Shown here: positions 22,342 through 39,623 of the stretch, piece after piece
Layout: every line of letters begins with the position of its first letter
Numbering within the stretch: the first letter of the stretch is position 1
IMG/VR virus record: IMGVR_UViG_3300025470_000020
Strand: one strand, 5' to 3'
Source: an uncultured virus (IMG/VR IMGVR_UViG_3300025470_000020)
Lineage: Duplodnaviria > Heunggongvirae > Uroviricota > Caudoviricetes
DNA: 64,000 nucleotides
The notes under the pieces: generated by a model
What the model was told of the DNA's origin: nothing
Database searches by the model: none
Seen by the model: the letters and a program-made list of their open reading frames with translations, nothing else
Program-made: the position numbers and the translations under genes

Positions 22342-23115
22342 TTATACTTCTATATATTTCAATTTAAATAGGTCATGTTGATATTCTTTTGGATAAGCTC
22401 TTGGGTTACAAATCACTCTTGTTTCACTAATTGTATAATCGAAAGGATCGTGAGTGTGCCCATGAACCCATAACTTAACATCTTTAAATAAGTTCATAAG
22501 ATAATCCAGATTACTATGAAAACCACCGTTCATTATGCTGTCATTTTCATATCGTGGGTGAACAGAATTACGGCTAGGTGAATGGTGTGTTATAACAACT
22601 TTTTTACCTGATAAACTTTCAAGCATTGTTGCAATAAAATCTATACTCTTATTATGTTCTTTAACTGATTGTTCAGGTGAATACTTAATATAATTTTCAC
22701 CATCAAAGTATTTAATAATTCTCCAATCAGGCATTGAAGGCTTAATTAATTCCATTGTATACTTATCAGAATTATTCATATTAGTCCACATGGTTGAACC
22801 AATAAAATTAATATCACCAATTTTGGCCGCTTGATTATTAAGAACACGAATATTATCCAAGTGTTTTAACTTATCTGTGATATCTTTTACCGTGTCATTG
22901 TATAGATAATTATAATGCTCGTGATTACCAACCACATATACAATATCTCTAAACTTTTTTGATATATCTTCAAAAAAATCTATTTTAAAATGCTTTGCTG
23001 AACATATATCGCCAGCTAAAATCAATACATCAGCATTCTCATCATTATTTAATGTGAGGTCTCTATGTTCTAAATGTAAATCACTTGCAATCGCTAACTT
23101 CACAATGTTTTCCAA
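22342..23115 (-). CDS. calcineurin-like metallophosphoesterase
   Basis: SDLHLE, LAGD, GNHE, THHSP and HGHTH motifs. Confidence 0.9.
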   Translation of the reverse strand: MENIVKLAIASDLHLEHRDLTLNNDENADVLILAGDICSAKHFKIDFFEDISKKFRDIVYVVGNHEHYNYLYNDTVKDITDKLKHLDNIRVLNNQAAKIGDINFIGSTMWTNMNNSDKYTMELIKPSMPDWRIIKYFDGENYIKYSPEQSVKEHNKSIDFIATMLESLSGKKVVITHHSPSRNSVHPRYENDSIMNGGFHSNLDYLMNLFKDVKLWVHGHTHDPFDYTISETRVICNPRAYPKEYQHDLFKLKYIEV

Positions 23116-23140
23116 TTCTATTATTAGCCAATAAGATATC

Positions 23141-23272
23141 GGGCAGTATTTAGCCGCCCTCCTGCCAAGTATCGCAGAGATTGCTTACCAAACTCGGTAG
23201 TCCAATTGGCTCGTTACGGTCGATTAACTCGATCCAGTCTGCTCTGGTTACAGGCCTTAACCTACCTGTAAT
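23141..23272 (-). ncRNA. candidate structured RNA (unassigned)
   Basis: GC-rich ORF-free intergenic segment with several nested stems (TTACAGG/CCTGTAA, CAGAG/CTCTG, TACC/GGTA, GGGCGG/CTGCCC). Confidence 0.4.
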
Positions 23273-23276
23273 TAGG

Positions 23277-23471
23277 TTATTTTTTGATTGTATAGTTTTT
23301 AAATATACTGATTAGAATTGATACTGCTAACCAATTTCGCCATGTATAATCAATATACAAGGCAGGAAAGATTGTATCCCATGCCCATATAACAACCAAT
23401 GACCAACATAAGCATAATACTACTAATACTACTGCTGCTGTTATTGCCAATGCCCATTCTATATCTTTCAT
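23277..23471 (-). CDS. hypothetical membrane protein
   Basis: Two hydrophobic segments. Confidence 0.65.
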   Translation of the reverse strand: MKDIEWALAITAAVVLVVLCLCWSLVVIWAWDTIFPALYIDYTWRNWLAVSILISIFKNYTIKK

Positions 23472-24007
23472 TATTGATCCTCCGCCATCATTTCTTTCCA
23501 ATCCTCAGCTATTTGTTCTAGATTGAAATCTTCAACCAGATGCTGAGGTATATTACTCAAGTCCTCATAATCAAGTTCATACGATGCGTCCTGACCGTCA
23601 TAGTATTCACCGACAAATGACATACCTTCTTCAATGTATGTAGCAGAAACATCCCAGCCATGTTCAAACATCCAATGATATAAGTTCGTTGGTGGTGCCC
23701 ATGCCGTTTCACAACTAAAGGTTATGGTGTCACCTTCTCTACGCCAATTATTAGCATCGGCATTCCATTTTGTTCCCCAATTACTGACTGACCAGCTATA
23801 CCAATCAGGTGCACCATACTTCTCTTGCATCTCAGCGGCTAATGCCTCATTACGGTTAGGTGATTCTACATCAACCAATTCTTGTGGGCATGGCATAAAG
23901 AAATCAAACCAATTCTTGCCTTCACCATTCTTTAGAAAAGTTTCTAACCTGTCCATCTTTTCAGGTGTTGCTGTAATGCTAACACTATTTGAGCACCAAT
24001 TTGGCAT
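23471..24007 (-). CDS. YubB/Api92-like ferredoxin-fold (DUF1281-type) protein
   Basis: MPNWCSN...WYSW...NWGTKW...TAWAPP...Y.EEG..F.G. Confidence 0.8.
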   Translation of the reverse strand: MPNWCSNSVSITATPEKMDRLETFLKNGEGKNWFDFFMPCPQELVDVESPNRNEALAAEMQEKYGAPDWYSWSVSNWGTKWNADANNWRREGDTITFSCETAWAPPTNLYHWMFEHGWDVSATYIEEGMSFVGEYYDGQDASYELDYEDLSNIPQHLVEDFNLEQIAEDWKEMMAEDQ

Positions 24008-24008
24008 C

Positions 24009-24413
24009 TTAATTGCCCTCCACTAATTTATAAGGTTTCTTCCAATCGCCGATATTCACATCAACATAATAGGCAGTATTAAAATAATCTATTTGAGCAT
24101 TACTTTCATCATACCAATCAGCTGACTTCATCGCTTTGAATACGGTCTCTAAAAATTCTTTCGCCTTGCCAGAAAAGTGCTGATGATACCAATAAGGGTT
24201 CACATCAACATAACCAGCATCCAAATGAAAGCGATAATCGTTGCCTGTATTTGCTTTAATGTTAGATAGAAAGTCAATCGAGCCTTCTTTAATTGATAGT
24301 TTAATCGTGCTATGGTTTCTAACCGATAATGAACCTTTGATGCCATACTTCTTGAGTATAGGTTTCAAGTTCTCTGCAATTACTTTCTTTTTAGATTGAT
24401 TCATGTAAGCCAT
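24009..24413 (-). CDS. conserved hypothetical phage early protein
   Basis: MAYMNQ..K..I...LK..LKKYG.KGSLSV...D.S..Q.DYF..AYY..VNIG.W.KPY. Confidence 0.75.
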   Translation of the reverse strand: MAYMNQSKKKVIAENLKPILKKYGIKGSLSVRNHSTIKLSIKEGSIDFLSNIKANTGNDYRFHLDAGYVDVNPYWYHQHFSGKAKEFLETVFKAMKSADWYDESNAQIDYFNTAYYVDVNIGDWKKPYKLVEGN

Positions 24414-24434
24414 TTTACTTCTCCCGTTTAGTTT

Positions 24435-24502
24435 ATTTTTAAAGCACACTCGGCATTAAGCCTTTGCTACCAAGAAATTGGATTGGAATGTGCTTTAAAA
24501 AT
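24435..24502. repeat. 14-bp perfect inverted repeat
   Basis: ATTTTTAAAGCACA (24435-24448) and TGTGCTTTAAAAAT (24489-24502). Confidence 0.85.
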
Positions 24503-24530
24503 GGCAGTTTCTTTAATGACTGAGCTGCCA
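24497..24530 (-). terminator. putative Rho-independent terminator
   Basis: Minus strand TGGCAG...CTGCCA followed by TTTTT, downstream of the 24543-24917 ORF. Confidence 0.55.
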
Positions 24531-24542
24531 AAAGTCTTAACA

Positions 24543-24917
24543 TTAAGCAGCGAGAGCTACTTTTTTGTCTTGTGCTACTGGTTTTACCTTAGCAGGTTCA
24601 GCAGCCTTTACCTCAACCTTAGCGGTTGTTGTAACCTTAGCTTTAACTTGCTTGTAACGACCGTTAGCATCAAAAGCATCTGGATTAACCAATTGATAAC
24701 CAGTCACCTTACGACCATCTTTTACAACCTTAACAATGCCACCGTCACGGCGAATATTGTAAATATTGGTTGATAAGCGATATAACACCGCTTCTTGGTC
24801 TGTGCCTTTGAATACTGCTTTGATTTCGTCAGGCGATACTACTTTGCCAGATAAAAGCACTTGCGTGATTTTCTCGTGGCGATTAGTTTTGCCTTTTCTG
24901 ATTTTTAATGTTGCCAT
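24543..24917 (-). CDS. basic winged-HTH-like DNA-binding protein
   Basis: Lys/Arg-rich; YRLSTNIYNIRRDGG.V....DGRKVTGYQL; Ala/Lys-rich tail. Confidence 0.6.
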   Translation of the reverse strand: MATLKIRKGKTNRHEKITQVLLSGKVVSPDEIKAVFKGTDQEAVLYRLSTNIYNIRRDGGIVKVVKDGRKVTGYQLVNPDAFDANGRYKQVKAKVTTTAKVEVKAAEPAKVKPVAQDKKVALAA

Positions 24918-24968
24918 AATATAATACTCCTCAAAATTAATAATAAACTACTCATACTACAATGTACC

Positions 24969-24996
24969 ATTATACACTTTCCACTATAAAAGTCAA
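24969..24996 (-). promoter_or_regulatory. early promoter family TTGACT-N16-TATAAT
   Basis: Minus strand ATGCTTGACTTTT...TATAATGG. Confidence 0.85.
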
Positions 24997-25012
24997 GCAT
25001 TATTTTGGTACT

Positions 25013-25243
25013 TTACCTCATGTATACCGAAAATCTATCGGCAAACATTCTTACGCAATCTTGGTACCTTTGGTTAGGCGACCTTCGATCCAACGGGTTA
25101 GTTCTGCTACCTCTGAACCTCACCCGAATTTTTTTACCTTGAGATTTGAAATAAGCCCTTACCTCATCCAATCGGCGTATTGGTATATTCTTATAACGGG
25201 CTTCTTCACCTTCTACTCTAAATGGTTTTAAGTTCATATTCAC
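25013..25243 (-). CDS. hypothetical basic protein
   Basis: ORF track; RBS GGAG. Confidence 0.7.
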   Translation of the reverse strand: MNMNLKPFRVEGEEARYKNIPIRRLDEVRAYFKSQGKKIRVRFRGSRTNPLDRRSPNQRYQDCVRMFADRFSVYMR

Positions 25244-25245
25244 TC

Positions 25246-25491
25246 CTATGGTCTATAATAAGAATTAGTCCAATTGCCTTCGGGTTCTTCCTCGTAAGCA
25301 AGCGCCTGTATAATATCGTCAAGCACTTCCAACTTGTCCATTGGCATTCTATCACCGTTTAAAAATATCTCACTTCTAACCAGTTCTAAAATAGTCTTTA
25401 CCTCAACCTCGGTTAGTTCTATCTTACGAAGCGAACCGTCATCCAAGTTTCTGGTCTCACCAGTTCTAGTATTCAATGAAAACGCTACCAT
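25246..25491 (-). CDS. hypothetical protein
   Basis: RBS GGAGGT; its own promoter. Confidence 0.75.
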   Translation of the reverse strand: MVAFSLNTRTGETRNLDDGSLRKIELTEVEVKTILELVRSEIFLNGDRMPMDKLEVLDDIIQALAYEEEPEGNWTNSYYRP

Positions 25492-25518
25492 ACTTACCTC
25501 CCTAATTTCAATACAACC

Positions 25519-25546
25519 ATTATATCACATCCATACCAAAAGTCAA
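25519..25546 (-). promoter_or_regulatory. early promoter family TTGACT-N16-TATAAT
   Basis: Read directly. Confidence 0.85.
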
Positions 25547-25558
25547 GCATTATTTAGC

Positions 25559-25945
25559 CTATTCGGTATCGATCCATACTCTACCAAAAATCAATTCGCC
25601 ACCGTTCTTTTTAATAACATAGAAGTCATTAGGAAAATCAATGATATTGCCTAAGTCCTCACGGATTTCGTCCTGATTGATATCCTCAACCTTGATACAA
25701 CCGATTGAACCAGAATCCACAGCATATTCACGACCTTCTTGGTCATTGTAAACACCATCACCATAAGCTGTACCAAAGATAGCAAACTTACGACCATCTT
25801 TTAATGAAAATACACCTTCGCCTGGGTCACCATTGGTTGGATCGAACATTATATTACATGCTTCGTCCCATTCATTGTGCATAACATAGCATAGGTCTCC
25901 CACATAATACTTACCTGCCGGCATCTTATCAACTATCATAATCAA
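25559..25945 (-). CDS. conserved hypothetical protein
   Basis: MPAGKYYVGDLCYV...TAYGDG.Y....VDSG.IG.I. Confidence 0.8.
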   Translation of the reverse strand: MIMIVDKMPAGKYYVGDLCYVMHNEWDEACNIMFDPTNGDPGEGVFSLKDGRKFAIFGTAYGDGVYNDQEGREYAVDSGSIGCIKVEDINQDEIREDLGNIIDFPNDFYVIKKNGGELIFGRVWIDTE

Positions 25946-26108
25946 ATAACCTTCCTATCTTATTAACGATATCCTCATTATAATAATCTGGATCAATGTT
26001 CCGTATAGCATAAAACATATACTCCAACTCATCATAATCCAATTGAACCGTTACCTCTGGTGCATCAGTAGATAACCTCTTTACCTCAAAAATAGTCTTA
26101 CCAGTCAT
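25929..26108 (-). CDS. hypothetical protein (59 aa)
   Basis: Manually read MTGKTIFEVKRLSTDAPEVTVQLDYDELEYM...; RBS GAGGT. Confidence 0.65.
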   Translation of the reverse strand: MTGKTIFEVKRLSTDAPEVTVQLDYDELEYMFYAIRNIDPDYYNEDIVNKIGRLFDYDS

Positions 26109-26140
26109 ATTACTTTACCTCACTTATTATTAATGTTACC

Positions 26141-26168
26141 ATTATATCATATTTGGATAGAATGTCAA
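26141..26168 (-). promoter_or_regulatory. early promoter family TTGACA-N16-TATAAT
   Basis: Read directly. Confidence 0.85.
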
Positions 26169-26186
26169 GCATTATTTGGATACTTT

Positions 26187-26283
26187 TACCTCATTAAAAC
26201 CTGTATAGTACCTCAATAGTCTTACCTCAAGTACCTCAATGATACCTCACGGACTTAGCGAGGCGCCTGCGTGTAATACCTCG
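26187..26283. repeat. cluster of TACCTC(A) direct repeats
   Basis: Copies at 26187, 26209, 26223, 26232, 26243 and 26277 in non-coding DNA. Confidence 0.85.
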
Positions 26284-26385
26284 CCATGGCCTTCGCTGGC
26301 CAGTGCTCCTGTATTGGTGTTAGTTTCTCAGCACGATACCGAAAGTTCCAGAGGTATCCTGAGGAACTTCCGAGCACCTCTGATA

Positions 26386-26532
26386 TTATTTTGTGATAGC
26401 CTTTACATATTCCTTGAAGCCTGCTACTGCTGACTTCTTATCACAAAAATAGAAGCGCATGGATACCAATTGATTATTAATGATATCGGACACCTCTATA
26501 ACACCCGTATTTGGGTTCCGTGTTATAGTCAT
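26386..26532 (-). CDS. hypothetical protein (48 aa)
   Basis: MTITRNPNTGVIEVSDIINNQLVSMRFYF...; RBS TAAGGAG and its own promoter. Confidence 0.75.
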   Translation of the reverse strand: MTITRNPNTGVIEVSDIINNQLVSMRFYFCDKKSAVAGFKEYVKAITK

Positions 26533-26558
26533 TCTTATCTCCTTATTATTAAACTGCT

Positions 26559-26586
26559 ATTATACATGAAATGGCAAAAATGTCAA
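26559..26586 (-). promoter_or_regulatory. early promoter family TTGACA-N16-TATAAT
   Basis: Read directly. Confidence 0.85.
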
Positions 26587-26656
26587 GCACTTTCGAGCGG
26601 ACTATACTATAAGAATAGCACGCAACCTCTGCTCTCCTCTCCAACCGGTAAATACC

Positions 26657-26684
26657 ATTATACACGATCCAATAAAAAAGTCAA
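26657..26684 (-). promoter_or_regulatory. early promoter family TTGACT-N16-TATAAT
   Basis: Read directly; no ORF before the next promoter. Confidence 0.8.
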
Positions 26685-26715
26685 GCACTTTTTGGGGTGC
26701 CTGACTTCTATTTGA

Positions 26716-27432
26716 TTAAGCAGCTAGTGCGATTGGTATGGTTTTCTTGACAAAACCACTGGTGTCCTTCTTAGCCTTGCCCTTCGCCTTGAGACCGGCA
26801 ATAACACCCTTAGGATCAAGGAAGCGAAGGTCGGTGTCATCAGCATTAATCACAGGGAGACCTAGGTACTGCTCTGGTAAGCCCTTATCAAATACTGCTG
26901 CTACATTATAACCTTGCTCGATAGCACGGTAAACATCGTGGTCGTTTCCGTCAGCAGCAGAAAAGGTTAGGTTATAATTGAATGGTACAGTGCGACCGAC
27001 TATTTTGGTGTAATCATAGAATTGGACAGTAGGAAATGCTTCCATCATGTTGCGGTATTGTCCTACTCTGATTTTCTCCCATGCGATATCACTGGTGCCG
27101 TTTAAACGGAATACAGGGATTAATCCCTTCTTTTCAGCATATTTGATGGTGCTCTGTATTTCAAGTGCTAGCTCTTCCATGAATTGCTCACGAGCTTCAA
27201 AAAAGCGCTTGGTTTTACGGATACGGGCTTGCTGAATTACATTGGTATTTTCGCCCTTCTTGAATATACCACCACGGCCTGCTGTATTCAAGCAAGCAGC
27301 TTTACAGCCTGCGGTTGCCTTAGGACAGGTTTGGTGGCCTGATAAGTCAGCAGGTGCTAAATGGAGGATACTGGTTAGGTAGCCCTTCTTTTCGCCCTTC
27401 ATGATTTTTGGATTGCCTCTAGTCAATAACAT
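26716..27432 (-). CDS. GP88-family Cys-rich (radical-SAM-like) protein
   Basis: CPKATAGCKAACL..AGRG, RLNGTSDI.W, QFYDYTK, Y.LTFS, D..DLRFLD. Confidence 0.75.
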   Translation of the reverse strand: MLLTRGNPKIMKGEKKGYLTSILHLAPADLSGHQTCPKATAGCKAACLNTAGRGGIFKKGENTNVIQQARIRKTKRFFEAREQFMEELALEIQSTIKYAEKKGLIPVFRLNGTSDIAWEKIRVGQYRNMMEAFPTVQFYDYTKIVGRTVPFNYNLTFSAADGNDHDVYRAIEQGYNVAAVFDKGLPEQYLGLPVINADDTDLRFLDPKGVIAGLKAKGKAKKDTSGFVKKTIPIALAA

Positions 27433-27459
27433 TTATATCTCCTTATTAATTCAAGTACC

Positions 27460-27487
27460 ATTCTACACTAATTGGCAGGAAAGTCAA
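27460..27487 (-). promoter_or_regulatory. early promoter family TTGACT-N16-TAGAAT
   Basis: Read directly. Confidence 0.8.
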
Positions 27488-27548
27488 GCACTATTTTTGG
27501 TCATAAAACGGTCATATTGGAGCTAGCACGCAGGGGCGGTGTGGAACC

Positions 27549-27576
27549 ATTATATCATATCCAAGGGGAAAGTCAA
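27549..27576 (-). promoter_or_regulatory. early promoter family, left half of a back-to-back pair
   Basis: TTGACT-N16-TATAAT. Confidence 0.85.
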
Positions 27577-27600
27577 GCACTATTTGGGGCTAAAAAATGC

Positions 27601-27628
27601 TTGACTTTTGGTAGGAATCATGTATAAT
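27601..27628 (+). promoter_or_regulatory. early promoter family, right half of a back-to-back pair
   Basis: TTGACT-N16-TATAAT. Confidence 0.85.
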
Positions 27629-27656
27629 GGTAACATAATGACAAAGGAGATAAAAA

Positions 27657-27842
27657 ATGCAATTATACCACTTTCATGTATTGAATAACATCTATGATGT
27701 GGAGGCACCCGATGCTGGCTCAGCCATGCAATGGATGAACCGTCAGGTTATGGATGCCTTAAACATGGGGCCATATGCTTGGATGGATATGCCTATGCTT
27801 GAAAATTCATACTATTGTAGCCCTGGCGATTATTTCAATTAA
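27657..27842 (+). CDS. hypothetical protein
   Basis: RBS AAGGAG; its stop overlaps the next promoter repeat. Confidence 0.75.
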   Translation: MQLYHFHVLNNIYDVEAPDAGSAMQWMNRQVMDALNMGPYAWMDMPMLENSYYCSPGDYFN

Positions 27843-27845
27843 TGC

Positions 27846-27873
27846 TTGACTTTTTTGCCAGTTCTGATATAAT
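27846..27873 (+). promoter_or_regulatory. early promoter family TTGACT-N16-TATAAT
   Basis: Read directly. Confidence 0.85.
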
Positions 27874-27900
27874 GGTAACATAATGAATAAGGAGAAAAAT

Positions 27901-28224
27901 ATGACGGTTTTAGGATTTTGTAAGGTTTTAGGTGAGGTTATCGAGGACAATTATGCTGCCAAGTGGACTCATAATGTATTGAAGATTGATATCCAAGAAG
28001 GCAAGCGCTTTTATAAGCTTGTCCGCCATGACTATGATGTGGAGACAGGCCAATTGGTTAAGTTTTCAGGCTCTGTCCACTGCTTCGTGGAGAAGGCGAC
28101 TGGCGATATCTATAAGGCAGCTAGCTTTAAAGCCCCTGCCAAGGGTGTCCGTTTCAATATCGTTAAGGATCTAGAATTATTGAAGGAAATCGCTGATTGG
28201 GCAGGTGGCTATCTATACCGCTAA
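27901..28224 (+). CDS. conserved phage early hypothetical protein
   Basis: GKRFYKLV...SVHCFVEKATGDIYKAASFKAPAKGVRFNI...ADWAGGYLY; RBS TAAGGAG. Confidence 0.8.
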   Translation: MTVLGFCKVLGEVIEDNYAAKWTHNVLKIDIQEGKRFYKLVRHDYDVETGQLVKFSGSVHCFVEKATGDIYKAASFKAPAKGVRFNIVKDLELLKEIADWAGGYLYR

Positions 28225-28232
28225 AATAATGC

Positions 28233-28260
28233 TTGACTTTTGGTATGGATATGTTAGGAT
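28233..28260 (+). promoter_or_regulatory. early promoter family TTGACT-N16-TAGGAT
   Basis: Read directly. Confidence 0.75.
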
Positions 28261-28269
28261 GGCTACACT

Positions 28270-28356
28270 ATGAATAATTTAATAACACTTTTAATAGGGC
28301 TCTGGATCGGACTAGTAATAATAACCATCGGGCTCTATATTTTGGAGAGAAAATAA
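28270..28356 (+). CDS. single-TM micro-protein (28 aa), near-leaderless
   Basis: MNNLITLLIGLWIGLVIITIGLYILERK; ATG 9 nt after the -10 box. Confidence 0.6.
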   Translation: MNNLITLLIGLWIGLVIITIGLYILERK

Positions 28357-28357
28357 A

Positions 28358-28561
28358 ATGGCTAAGTTTACAGTAAGGCTACCAAAATTGGTAGAGTTTA
28401 TCGAGACCGAGGTTCATACAATCGAGGCTGACTCTGCTGAAGAGGCAATGGAAATAGTAATGAATTCTAGTGGAGATCCAAATGTCCTCTATGAGGAAGA
28501 CGGATGGGAAACTAGGGAAGTGTGGTATCATGATATGGAAGCAGAGGAGATTAAAGCATGA
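28358..28561 (+). CDS. small acidic hypothetical protein
   Basis: TIEADSAEEAME motif; RBS GGAG. Confidence 0.75.
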   Translation: MAKFTVRLPKLVEFIETEVHTIEADSAEEAMEIVMNSSGDPNVLYEEDGWETREVWYHDMEAEEIKA

Positions 28562-28851
28562 GCAAATTATTAGCAGTTCTATTATTATCAGTCTCCATCG
28601 GGGCTCAGGCTCACGATGGGTTCAGAGGCGGATATGGCGGTGGGTACCATCATGGCGGTGGTAACAATTGGATCGCTCCAGCTATTATAGGGGGCATCGT
28701 AGGATATGAGCTTAATCGCTCTTATGGATACAATGCTAATCCCTACGTTGGCCAGTTCGGTCGAGGTTGCCGCCCCATCTATCAGACCGTATGGGCTCCA
28801 AACGGATTCGGTGGAGTGGTTCCGTTTCAGCAGTATTTGGGCTGTAATTAA
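28558..28851 (+). CDS. secreted Gly-rich protein
   Basis: Signal peptide MSKLLAVLLLSVSIGAQA; G/H-rich tract; WIAPAIIGGIVGY. Confidence 0.75.
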   Translation: MSKLLAVLLLSVSIGAQAHDGFRGGYGGGYHHGGGNNWIAPAIIGGIVGYELNRSYGYNANPYVGQFGRGCRPIYQTVWAPNGFGGVVPFQQYLGCN

Positions 28852-28858
28852 GCCCCCT

Positions 28859-28886
28859 ATTATATCACATCTGGCAATAAAGTCAA
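28859..28886 (-). promoter_or_regulatory. early promoter family, antisense-facing
   Basis: TTGACT-N16-TATAAT pointing back into the plus-strand genes. Confidence 0.75.
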
Positions 28887-28911
28887 GCCCCCTAGGCCCC
28901 CTAGATTTCGC

Positions 28912-28939
28912 TTGACTTTTTCATTGGTTTCTGTATAAT
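28912..28939 (+). promoter_or_regulatory. early promoter family TTGACT-N16-TATAAT
   Basis: Read directly; no ORF before the next promoter. Confidence 0.8.
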
Positions 28940-29019
28940 GGACACCATTGGTAAGGCAGCAATTAATCTGGTCTTCTAATCCACCCCTGGTCGTCTTCCA
29001 TAGGGGGCTAAAATTCTGC

Positions 29020-29047
29020 TTGACATTCCATCCATTTTCTGTATAAT
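29020..29047 (+). promoter_or_regulatory. early promoter family TTGACA-N16-TATAAT
   Basis: Read directly. Confidence 0.85.
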
Positions 29048-29075
29048 GGAACATAATTGATAAGGAGATAAAAAA

Positions 29076-29405
29076 ATGAGTATGTTAGTAATCGATACGC
29101 AAGACCAAGAAAATTATGCCGCCCACCAAGGTTTCACTGGTGACTACCGCTGGAAAATGAAGGGTGGTCAATCCTACAAAATCACTAACATTCCACAAGG
29201 CGTGGACCCAGCTGAGGTTGTGGAGATGGTTCGCTTGGACATCGAGGAGAATAACAATTTCTTCCGCTCAGACATTATCGGATACTCCCTCCAAGCGGAT
29301 GACTGGATGTCTCCATTTGAAAAGAGCCAGCTCGAATACGAAGGCGAGATCCGCTATGCCGAACCCACCATTGATTATCGAGATTATTTAGCAGAAATCG
29401 CTTAA
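29076..29405 (+). CDS. conserved hypothetical protein
   Basis: LVI.TQ..ENY.AH......WK.KGG..Y...FEKSQLEYEG.I; RBS TAAGGAG. Confidence 0.8.
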   Translation: MSMLVIDTQDQENYAAHQGFTGDYRWKMKGGQSYKITNIPQGVDPAEVVEMVRLDIEENNNFFRSDIIGYSLQADDWMSPFEKSQLEYEGEIRYAEPTIDYRDYLAEIA

Positions 29406-29411
29406 TAATGC

Positions 29412-29439
29412 TTGACTTTTGGCATGGATGTGTTATCCT
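29412..29439 (+). promoter_or_regulatory. early promoter family TTGACT-N16-TATCCT
   Basis: Read directly. Confidence 0.75.
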
Positions 29440-29466
29440 AGCCATACAATTAAAAAGGAGAAAAAT

Positions 29467-29736
29467 ATGACTGAAAAAGAAAAATTAGATTGGGAATTAC
29501 AAGCTTACGGATGCTCTAAAGCGTCCCTTATGAGAATGGTAAAAGAGCAAGCCTTCCCAGGCACAGAGCTCATGTTCGCAGCTGGTATCCTATCAGATGC
29601 ACAGGAAATCATCAGCGCTGAATTCAACGAGGACGGCTGGGTATCTCCAGACCAAGCGAATCAAGCTAGACAGTTCCTCAATCGTGCTAAATGCATCATG
29701 TTCAACTTGATGGAATCCAGAAAGGAGCCTGTATGA
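29467..29736 (+). CDS. hypothetical protein
   Basis: RBS AAGGAG; ILSDAQE...ARQFLNRAK. Confidence 0.75.
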   Translation: MTEKEKLDWELQAYGCSKASLMRMVKEQAFPGTELMFAAGILSDAQEIISAEFNEDGWVSPDQANQARQFLNRAKCIMFNLMESRKEPV

Positions 29737-30029
29737 GAATCGAAAAGCTATCTTCAGCAGGAGGCACTTCCCTCCAAGGCGAAGTCTATACGGACTATGA
29801 TACACTGGTGGCAGCCTTCGGTGAACCATCCTACGGTCCAGATGAGGACCCATCCGATAAGGTGACCTGTGAATGGGTGCTAGAAATCGATGGCACGGTG
29901 GTGACCATATACGACTGGAAGGAATACGGTGATACCCCTAGGCACTATTATGACTGGCACATTGGCGGGTATGATAGAAGAGCAGTGGACAAGGTTGAAT
30001 CAATAATTAGGGAGGTAGAAAATGCTTAA
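29733..30029 (+). CDS. conserved hypothetical protein
   Basis: GTSLQG...Y..LV..FGEP...DKV..EW....TIYDWK...WHIGG. Confidence 0.8.
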   Translation: MRIEKLSSAGGTSLQGEVYTDYDTLVAAFGEPSYGPDEDPSDKVTCEWVLEIDGTVVTIYDWKEYGDTPRHYYDWHIGGYDRRAVDKVESIIREVENA

Positions 30030-30153
30030 AGGACTATTAATTGGTATTGTATTAGGATTGGTAATAAAATATGCTGTATCGGACTCTAGGTGGTTTCAGC
30101 ATGATGAATTCGCTGAGTTCAAATCAACGAGCTCATTCGAGCAGTTCAAATAG
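30022..30153 (+). CDS. small membrane-anchored protein (43 aa)
   Basis: MLKGLLIGIVLGLVIKY...; RBS GGAGGT. Confidence 0.65.
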   Translation: MLKGLLIGIVLGLVIKYAVSDSRWFQHDEFAEFKSTSSFEQFK

Positions 30154-30185
30154 TTTTATCGGCGTCTAGTCAGCGCCACTCTCCG

Positions 30186-30215
30186 GAGGTGTCCATTGGG
30201 GCACCTCTTTTTTTT
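30186..30215 (+). terminator. Rho-independent terminator closing the plus-strand early block
   Basis: GAGGTGTCC-ATTG-GGGCACCTC followed by T8. Confidence 0.85.
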
Positions 30216-30299
30216 GGAGGCGGCTTAAGAATCGCTATGTGTCCTATAAAAAAAAGCCATCCATGGTCGGACTCTGAATTCAGTAACTTTTTTTCTAGC

Positions 30300-30599
30300 C
30301 TATTTTTTTGTGGAATCGAAATTTTTTCCGGAGGGTTTTCGTGTTCCCTTAATTTTTTCCTGGAGGTCTATAATCTCCAAGTCTTTATCGGCTAATTGAA
30401 CCTTGAGCGTTTGAATCACTTCATTAGACATTATCAGTTTAGTTTCTAATTCATCTACAGACTTTACCACGGAGTCTATTCTAGTCACTTCATCAATATA
30501 ATTATTATGATATTCTGAGCCATAGTACCAAATCATCGCTATTAATATAACGATTAATCCCAATAATACGTCATCTTTACCTATTTTAATTTTGTCCAT
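30300..30599 (-). CDS. hypothetical membrane-anchored coiled-coil protein
   Basis: ORF track; N-terminal TM. Confidence 0.65.
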   Translation of the reverse strand: MDKIKIGKDDVLLGLIVILIAMIWYYGSEYHNNYIDEVTRIDSVVKSVDELETKLIMSNEVIQTLKVQLADKDLEIIDLQEKIKGTRKPSGKNFDSTKK

Positions 30600-38849: not shown

Positions 38850-39217
38850 TCTGGTAACTCTGTTTTTTTAAGTGCTGCATACGCTTCATCAACAAATTCG
38901 TGTGATGTAGTTGATTTCTTTGCTACTACACCATACCAACCACCTGATAATAATTTTGAAACATAATAGTATGGGTCTAATAGTATGCCTTCAAATAAAT
39001 CTAAATCTTTAGTGAGGCCTTCTTTATCCTCTCTATACAATATAATTTGATACATTTGACCTAATTCATAGGTTTCATACACACCTGGATTATTATACAT
39101 GAATCCTTCAAAATGAATAGTTGAGCTACCATCCTTTTCTTTAGGTGATGCTACAAAATAAAAGGCATCATGGTCGCCTTTTTTAAATTCTCTCAATGTT
39201 TCTGGTATATCGCTCAA
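38846..39217 (-). CDS. hypothetical protein
   Basis: ORF track. Confidence 0.7.
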   Translation of the reverse strand: MSDIPETLREFKKGDHDAFYFVASPKEKDGSSTIHFEGFMYNNPGVYETYELGQMYQIILYREDKEGLTKDLDLFEGILLDPYYYVSKLLSGGWYGVVAKKSTTSHEFVDEAYAALKKTELPE

Positions 39218-39623
39218 TGTAATCCTTTATATGTGATTTTCTAACTCGACACATTATCCATGTATTATAGTAATCATCACTTAATATTACATCACGAATA
39301 AATTGTTCTTTAGTTTCCAGATAACTACATTCACCTTTTGATTTACATAGGTGAATAATCTCTCTACTAAAATTTTCAAGACCTAATTGTAACACATCTT
39401 GCTTCAATATGTCACTACTTCCATAGTAAGTTTGCCAATCGGAAAAAGCTTTATACTTTTTCTTTTTGCCTTTTACTTGTTTTGTTTTAGCAGAATAGAA
39501 GAATTTTTTACCAATGTATTTCTTATTGTTTGTTATATTTGTTATAAGATATACAAATCCGTAATTATCTTCTATCTGCTCTTCTGTAAAGTCTTTACCT
39601 TTATATTGCCAATTTAGTCCCAT
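39183..39623 (-). CDS. GIY-YIG endonuclease (EndoII/DenA-like)
   Basis: GFVYLITN...KKYIGKK...SDW..YYGS...FSREI...YYN.WI. Confidence 0.85.
   Translation of the reverse strand: MGLNWQYKGKDFTEEQIEDNYGFVYLITNITNNKKYIGKKFFYSAKTKQVKGKKKKYKAFSDWQTYYGSSDILKQDVLQLGLENFSREIIHLCKSKGECSYLETKEQFIRDVILSDDYYNTWIMCRVRKSHIKDYIERYTRNIERI

Follow-up and report, generated by a model that had tools for sequence, protein, structure and literature searches.

We analysed a 64,000-nt stretch of DNA (the window, in what follows) from an uncultured virus of the Caudoviricetes (IMG/VR record IMGVR_UViG_3300025470_000020), in which the hexamer TACCTC accumulates on the plus strand within 1.7 kb, between positions 24609 and 26282. 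All the genes from 9.4 to 27.4 kb, including the small open reading frames (ORFs) that contain or adjoin the motif (from upstream to downstream, ORF48, ORF59, ORF81, ORF76 and ORF124), are on the minus strand, so the motif reads GAGGTA in the sense of the mRNA. The window carries several T4-like genes (gp32, gp59, gp33, gp53, a T4 baseplate protein, RNase H, SegE and ribonucleotide reductase), and a metagenome contig of 280,146 bp contains a 4-kb piece identical to it; megablast against the phage GenBank records gave no match and blastn gave two short chance hits. The comparisons described below confirm that the motif cluster is real, but it was found in one lineage only.

TACCTC occurs 26 times in the window when both strands are counted, and 15 of these copies lie on the plus strand between the limits given above; the remaining 62.3 kb holds 11 copies, 5 on the plus and 6 on the minus strand. 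Shuffling led to an expectation of 17.14 copies for the two strands of the whole window, or 0.22 per strand in 1,675 nt, and the Poisson probability of 15 or more copies in 1,675 nt is around 1e-22. Using as baseline the other minus-sense DNA of the window (48,851 nt), GAGGTA was observed 15 times vs. 0.16 expected, TGAGGTA 11 times vs. 0.05 and GAGG 23 times vs. 2.0; these enrichment figures were all computed within the 64-kb window. A previous sequence-only reading of this DNA had listed 15 plus-strand copies with a chance expectation under one, and both points hold: every copy is in place, from 24609 to 26277. It had also described copies in coding and non-coding DNA and a rising density toward 26.2 kb, and indeed six copies fall within 26187–26282.

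Uniform orientation and local clustering are also what a genome-scale polar DNA signal would show, such as a Chi-like site, a packaging (pac) site or an injection-stop site. We consider such a signal extremely unlikely, given that the motif is confined to 1.7 kb of 64 kb, with just five same-strand copies in the rest of the window, and that there is no terminase gene nearby. The proposed coincidence of the cluster with a switch in GC skew was not found either: the skew follows the direction of transcription only, with no switch at 26 kb. Of the two possibilities left by the sequence-only reading, a directional DNA signal or a motif read in RNA, reading in RNA fits best, and the Chi-like and packaging options are not supported.

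The motif is longer than the hexamer, with 11 of the 15 copies extending to TGAGGTA and the base 3′ of GAGGT being an A in 15 of 18 cases. The 10-mer TGAGGTAAAG is present five times, one of them as the ribosome-binding site (RBS) of ORF59, and the longer form AATAGTCTT(T)ACC, as written on the plus strand, was located as claimed at 25390, 26091 and 26215, and on that strand only. Read directly, the extended unit TGAGGTAA comprises a TGA stop codon, the Shine–Dalgarno (SD) core GAGG and a TAA stop codon. By location, six of the 15 copies are intergenic, two are RBSs, six lie within coding sequence and one overlaps the stop codon of ORF76; all 15 are in the sense orientation.

The six intergenic copies lie in a non-coding gap of the minus strand (26109–26385), five of them in an irregular tandem array and one as an outlier. 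The array (26187–26249, minus strand) consists of five perfect TGAGGTA units, with TACCTC starting on the plus strand at 26243, 26232, 26223, 26209 and 26187, and therefore with start-to-start spacings of 11, 9, 14 and 22 nt. Its final unit stops about 25 nt ahead of the −35 box of an early promoter, P26168, whose cassette (26124–26179, minus strand) includes a −35 TTGACA at 26168–26163 and a −10 TATAAT at 26146–26141. The outlying copy, CGAGGTA (26277–26283, minus strand), is in the 5′ arm of a predicted hairpin, within a GC-richer structured spacer with three predicted hairpins (26255–26385, minus strand) that separates the stop codon of ORF48 from the array. The minus-sense fold of 26170–26390 has a predicted energy of −66.7 kcal/mol (z = −2.6), and scans of the window with Rfam and for tRNA genes gave no match. 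None of the five array units is followed by an ATG or GTG 5–10 nt downstream, and each has a GAGGT core complementary to the 3′ end of 16S rRNA, assuming the canonical anti-SD sequence, which may not be that of the host. The units are in sense downstream of promoter P26586 and ORF48 (26386–26586, with ORF48 at 26386–26532; minus strand). A scan of the minus strand of 26109–26385 revealed no terminator-like site, and a transcript reading through from P26586 would include both the hairpins and the array.

Two other readings of the array were discarded. A plus-strand antisense RNA containing UACCUC, which would mimic the anti-SD sequence, folds well (z = −3.5), but on its strand there are just a promoter-like match of 9/12 and a terminator-like site that is weak, and the conserved promoter modules all lack that direction. 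Likewise, a promoter-like reading of the units themselves, with TATCAT as the −10 box, was rejected because it did not hold consistently from one unit to the next.

Only two copies, those at 25495 and 26116, can be explained as RBSs, as had been noted from the sequence, and they precede orphan genes without relatives in IMG/VR. ORF59 (25929–26108, minus strand) is preceded by a copy within a complete 10-mer (26113–26122; copy 26116) and has in-frame copies at 26082 and 26052; its first 19 codons, approximately, look like array units. ORF81 (25246–25501 including the RBS, minus strand) starts as GGGAGGTAAGT-ATG (copy 25495) and contains an in-frame doublet, GAGGTT-GAGGTA, at 25399, which is identical to an array unit at 16 of 17 positions. 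The unit of the array is therefore the same sequence as the RBSs of these two genes.

Five of the six copies within coding sequence (24609, 25160, 25399, 26052 and 26082) encode Glu-Val in frame, and the sixth (25108) is in another frame. The extended unit closes two of the three frames with its TGA and TAA codons, so that a coding copy of it must read as Glu-Val; the in-frame pattern is hence a consequence of the motif and not separate evidence. Nevertheless, there is an excess of coding copies. Glu-Val dipeptides appear 7 times in the 473 codons of the five focal genes vs. 77 times in 17,413 codons elsewhere, and they are encoded by GAG-GTA in 5 of 7 cases vs. 3 of 77. Shuffling synonymous codons in the focal genes yielded a mean of 2.4 copies vs. 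7 observed, a value reached by 1 of 5,000 shuffles. Local copying accounts for part of this excess, since array units align with ORF81 (16/17) and with the 5′ end of ORF59 (18/21, with one gap), both alignments scoring 27 against a maximum of 26 in 200 shuffles. Additionally, ORF124 and ORF81 have in common a 17-mer that is identical at 16 of 17 positions (repeat family D7). Other coding copies look incidental, to judge from their position in the variable tail of ORF124 and at residues of ORF76 that vary among its 18 homologs.

The statement that we hold most firmly is that the unit derives from an RBS and was amplified, as we infer, by slippage and local copying. Beyond that, we tentatively favor that the copies are a family of repeats derived from an RBS and that any action they may have takes place in RNA. 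The stop–SD–stop unit of the early orphan genes ORF59 and ORF81 would have been amplified in tandem by replication slippage, to five units in the window and eight in two related strains, and it would also have been copied locally into, or captured by, neighboring genes, in a region built from repeated sigma-70 promoter cassettes that would turn over by cassette recombination. As every copy is in the sense of the mRNA, its activity, if any, would be in the early transcripts. There, the copies could be putative extra binding sites for the 30S subunit, as a standby or as a stabilizer, or, alternatively, frame-closing stop/restart pads between ORF48 and ORF59. Four observations favor a role in RNA: the copies run strictly in sense, they contain an SD core, their sequence is that of working RBSs, and there are parallel arrays, described below, that end in an RBS.

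Comparison with two related strains from metagenomes shows that the number of units is polymorphic. Strain L207 is 97% identical to the window over 24341–26399, and L206 is 92–93% identical. Both have 33 additional nt at 26250, corresponding to three more units of 11–12 nt and giving arrays of eight units vs. five, which suggests that the array grows by slippage. All eight units are perfect heptamers in both strains, as are the five of the window, and the spacings in the eight-unit allele are 12, 11, 11, 11, 9, 14 and 22 bp (a manual count on the alignment); extra letters at the array were seen in contigs from three of four sequencing runs. L207 contains 17 sense and no antisense copies and keeps 14 of the 15 copies of the window, the exception being the RBS of ORF59, which is split by a small hairpin insertion. 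The variant strains (L206, 2215–2250; L207 vs. window 26109–26124) have a GC hairpin of about 14 nt inserted at this place, after GAGG and before the ORF59 start codon, an arrangement that recalls the split RBS of T4 gene 38. Whole promoter cassettes also vary: L206 has two extra ones between the GP88 gene and ORF48, and contigs from further lake samples show breaks or new joints at the borders of cassettes.

The cluster is otherwise restricted. Among 80 loci retrieved from IMG/VR with the neighboring protein GP88, two are identical to the window and the other 78 encode GP88 proteins of 63–76% identity; these 78 loci never show more than two GAGGTA in 150 nt, although a few contain up to nine sense copies in about 10 kb. 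Similarly, of 29 loci with a homolog of ORF124, two are identical to the window and the 27 remaining ones have no GAGGTA cluster within 3 kb. Conservation at the syntenic position in relatives, as would be anticipated for a conserved function, is thus not observed, and the cluster appears only in strains that are 92–100% identical. In a set of 113 loci of relatives (893 kb), non-coding SD-like arrays were present only in the studied phage and in L050 and L053. In the clade of the latter two, the space separating two genes of the same strand is taken up by 4–6 AGGTA units with a period of 12 nt, the last of which serves as the working RBS of the downstream gene. We examined the upstream regions of 15 of the 23 loci containing this downstream gene, finding the array in four (L241–L244) and in none of 11 more distant ones. 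A pattern scan of IMG/VR for three TGAGGTA separated by 2–16 nt retrieved at least 120 stretches; among the matches listed, most are coding tandem repeats of giant viruses and phages, and a few are RBS-like tandem leaders.

These comparisons could also be explained if the cluster were a by-product without function, an RBS unit that expanded recently in the manner of a microsatellite and of which only the two RBSs are read, the dispersed copies being debris of recombination and duplication plus chance Glu-Val pairs. The restriction to one lineage, the scarcity of comparable arrays, the polymorphism of five vs. eight units, the whole-cassette indels between strains and the coding copies at variable residues, or shared by chance among homologs, are all in agreement with it. 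Conversely, the heptamers are perfect in every unit of the three strains in spite of spacers that vary in sequence and from 2 to 15 nt in length; the A after GAGGT is kept in most cases; the coding copies exceed the synonymous shuffle; and a 17-mer common to two unrelated genes is nearly identical. We consider this explanation somewhat unlikely.

The substitution pattern between the window and L206 bears directly on this question. We found 0 substitutions in 104 nt of the array, 2 in 147 of ORF48, 6 in 101 of the hairpins, 3 in 180 of ORF59 and 14 in 328 of ORF128. For the array, around 2.9 substitutions were expected (P ~ 0.055, in an underpowered comparison), so the excess of conservation is not significant and does not clearly indicate purifying selection. 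This result, which agrees with a by-product, is the first of several that weigh against a function of the copies in RNA. In the clade of L050 and L053, one AGGTA unit has decayed in L244, and the pace at which the arrays diverge, as read by eye, is roughly that of the coding DNA beside them. The usual RBS of the phage is AAGGAGA and not GAGGTA, and simple copying does not fully explain the excess of coding copies. Most of the array is upstream of promoter P26168, and its putative transcription would need read-through from P26586. By prediction, the copies are no more accessible than 6-mers are on average (p = 0.30), with five of the six intergenic copies scoring 0.002–0.05 and the sixth 0.10; relative to G-rich 6-mers, the exposure of the copies is slightly higher (p = 0.016). 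Lastly, the T before GAGG and the A after GAGGT mismatch what we take to be the canonical anti-SD sequence, and the conservation of these flanking bases would fit a reader that is not 16S rRNA, or else a part played by the stop codons.

The conserved T and A, which exceed the needs of SD pairing, are also compatible with reading at the DNA level, in which a protein would bind 7-bp direct repeats with a period of around 11 bp, as iterons, and would either control the early promoters or seed a complex of the origin or centromere type. The spacings of the eight-unit allele are near one or two helical turns, and TGAGGTAAA(A)GTA is found on both sides of the P26168 cassette. Furthermore, a motif copy is centered at around −55/−56 of both P26168 and P24996, by arithmetic from their −35 and −10 coordinates. 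Promoter P24996 (24969–24996, minus strand) drives ORF124 and has in common with P26168 the upstream element TGAGGTAAAGTA; the copy in question, at 25014, is about 55 nt upstream of the inferred P24996 start and differs little in sequence from the final unit of the array, before P26168.

A candidate for binding such repeats is encoded 0.1–1.3 kb downstream. ORF124 (24543–24917, minus strand) contains a winged-helix domain and a variable tail rich in Lys, Val and Ala, which includes the copy at 24609 (VEVK). Its first 88 residues are 57–92% identical across more than 1,100 database relatives, and the structural model displays a winged helix (predicted local distance difference test, pLDDT, of 68) with a disordered basic tail; the nearest folds in the PDB are Fur, MarR and PadR domains, with E values of 0.05 (the best) or higher. 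The tail looks histone H1-like. We nevertheless rejected ORF124 as the reader of the motif, because it is a generic winged helix and all 27 non-identical loci with this gene lack the cluster, so that the link to the neighboring helix-turn-helix protein suggested previously is not supported. This is the sole DNA-binding fold found near the motif. Comparison of the 12 ORFs in 23471–27432 with Pfam and PHROGs did not reveal any Rep, ParR/ParM/ParB, repressor or other dedicated binding family, and the products of ORF59, ORF81 and ORF128 are acidic, as deduced from their translations. ORF76 (25013–25243, minus strand), which bears a Glu-Val copy at 25160, one in another frame at 25108 and one over the stop codon at 25014, encodes a small, very basic protein that is conserved in relatives, some of its 18 homologs being on contigs of 264–342 kb. 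It has no Pfam or PHROG family; its members have in common the motifs YKNIPI, RYRGSRTNPLDR and FADRFSVY, and the protein may be a nucleic-acid binder.

In the parC site of plasmid R1, 11-bp iterons flank a promoter, and pho boxes are direct repeats of 7+4 bp. The cluster resembles these systems in having direct repeats with a short conserved core and a period of about 11 bp, which flank a promoter, but here neither a cognate initiator nor partition genes were found, the units are irregularly spaced, their core is that of working RBSs, some copies lie inside genes, and relatives lack the feature. Slippage of an 11-nt unit would by itself generate the 11-nt period. Additionally, the motif is also the sequence of working RBSs, its sense orientation holds without exception, even within genes, the comparable array of L050 and L053 fills an intercistronic gap, the cluster is not kept at the same place in related loci, and the skew merely tracks gene direction. 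Overall, we regard reading by a DNA-binding protein as unlikely.

Reading in RNA does not necessarily involve the ribosome. The copies could constitute a set of operators, or a sponge, for a specific RNA-binding protein or nuclease, of the RegA/RegB or CsrA type; the conservation of the extended motif beyond the SD core and the location of the sites on RBSs and within a defined group of early genes would fit such a function. CsrA needs a GGA triplet, which GAGGUA does not contain. There is a precedent in T4 RegB, which, according to the accessible text of PMC3014915, reads a tetranucleotide (GGAG) embedded in the SD regions of early mRNAs. Our motif is similar in being short, SD-embedded and, putatively, enriched in early transcripts and read in RNA; however, the same text indicates that RegB also requires GGA (PMC3014915), which excludes cleavage of the RegB type. 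In addition, a Pfam scan of the approximately 90 ORFs of the window did not detect RegA or RegB families, nor did we identify a candidate reader, and we deem this alternative very unlikely.

For binding of the ribosome itself, known stabilizers offer a parallel to the RBS-derived repeats. A STAB-SD-type stabilizer of Bacillus was reportedly described by Agaisse and Lereclus in 1996, and the stabilizer of phage SP82 is an SD-type stabilizer of mRNA. A strong SD lacking a start codon can stabilize an mRNA (PMC3997798), and 5′ untranslated regions with several sequences resembling an SD are overrepresented among mRNAs that are translated efficiently (PMC5389652), as far as the consulted sections of these works indicate. 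As in STAB-SD and other SD-without-start stabilizers of Bacillus, the array units are SD-like, would lie in untranslated RNA and do not initiate translation; on the other hand, the stabilizers of the Firmicutes, as presented in the available part of PMC3997798, are single elements near the 5′ end, whereas here there are 5–8 units after an ORF and before a promoter, with an SD match of only 5 nt. A bolder version of the same idea, which we judge quite unlikely, is that of a lineage-specific RNA regulon in which the stop–SD–stop row, on some of the early transcripts of the orphan genes, would be a trap for 30S subunits or a binding site for an RNA-binding protein that the phage dedicates to it, thereby re-allocating host ribosomes or timing translation. 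The change from five to eight units would then be a slippage-tuned dial, similar to a contingency locus, in a T4-like jumbo phage.

The cluster lies largely in a wider region, at 24.9–29.1 kb, of divergent early promoters, where the GC content climbs to 0.37–0.45 and the small genes mostly lack a known function. We found 11 sites scoring 11–12/12 against the sigma-70 consensus in 23000–30500, within a repeated module of about 50 nt, and at least 13 conserved early promoter modules; repeat families D1–D4 include the promoter, and an AAATARTGC element is conserved upstream of TTGAC. This setting resembles that of the PeSL (promoter-early stem-loop) cassettes carried by the hyperplastic regions of T4-type phages (PMC2839356; PMC4122927, in the accessible portions of both). 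The resemblance lies in the presence, in a T4-like phage, of many near-identical sigma-70 early promoters with AT-rich upstream sequences and an SD at the 3′ end, in cassettes that adjoin orphan genes in a hyperplastic region and that differ between close strains by whole-cassette indels. There are also differences: the accessible text of PMC2839356 describes a promoter, a stem-loop and an SD, and the tandem amplification of the SD is seen here; moreover, only about five of 12 modules have a clearly stable stem-loop. Of the 12 modules that were folded, those at 26684, 27576, 28886, 28912 and 25546 reached z ≤ −2.2 with a stem over the −35 box, whereas the two modules beside the motif, P26168 and P24996, have no clearly stable stem-loop over it.

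Other features of the region are worth recording. In the back-to-back divergent early promoters 27576/27601 and 28886/28912, the opposed −35 elements form palindromic stems of 10–13 bp. Behind four of the conserved early promoters lie short structured leaders, rich in GC and without an ORF, at 26590–26656 (minus strand), 27490–27548 (minus strand), 28850–28858 onward (minus strand) and 28942–29010 (plus strand). One of these leaders runs antisense into the ORF at 28558–28851, and a relative of the leader at 28942–29010 occurs in strain L206 (1352–1420), behind an extra promoter cassette. These leaders may be early small RNAs, and none of them matches Rfam. The heptamer GAAGGGC occurs four times in 26284–27600 vs. 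0.01 expected, an interval occupied mostly by the GP88 (PF17338) gene (26716–27432, minus strand). Farther away, a gene for a SegE-type GIY-YIG homing endonuclease (39183–39623, minus strand) is situated between the ribonucleotide reductase genes and small ORFs.

Even if it were functionless, the cluster would still be a record of slippage and of the turnover of cassettes in the hyperplastic region of a T4-like phage, uncultured and of about 280 kb. With regard to phage early regions in general, it would also caution that strand-polarized motif clusters can be debris of RBSs and not origins or packaging signals. If, as we tentatively favor, the units are read in RNA, they would represent a natural multi-copy Shine–Dalgarno element, with different numbers of copies in phage strains that occur together, and thus a simple, evolvable dial on early gene expression. 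Likewise, they would show that the regulatory pieces of PeSL-type cassettes can be amplified and absorbed into new orphan genes, as suggested by the first codons of ORF59, which look derived from the array.

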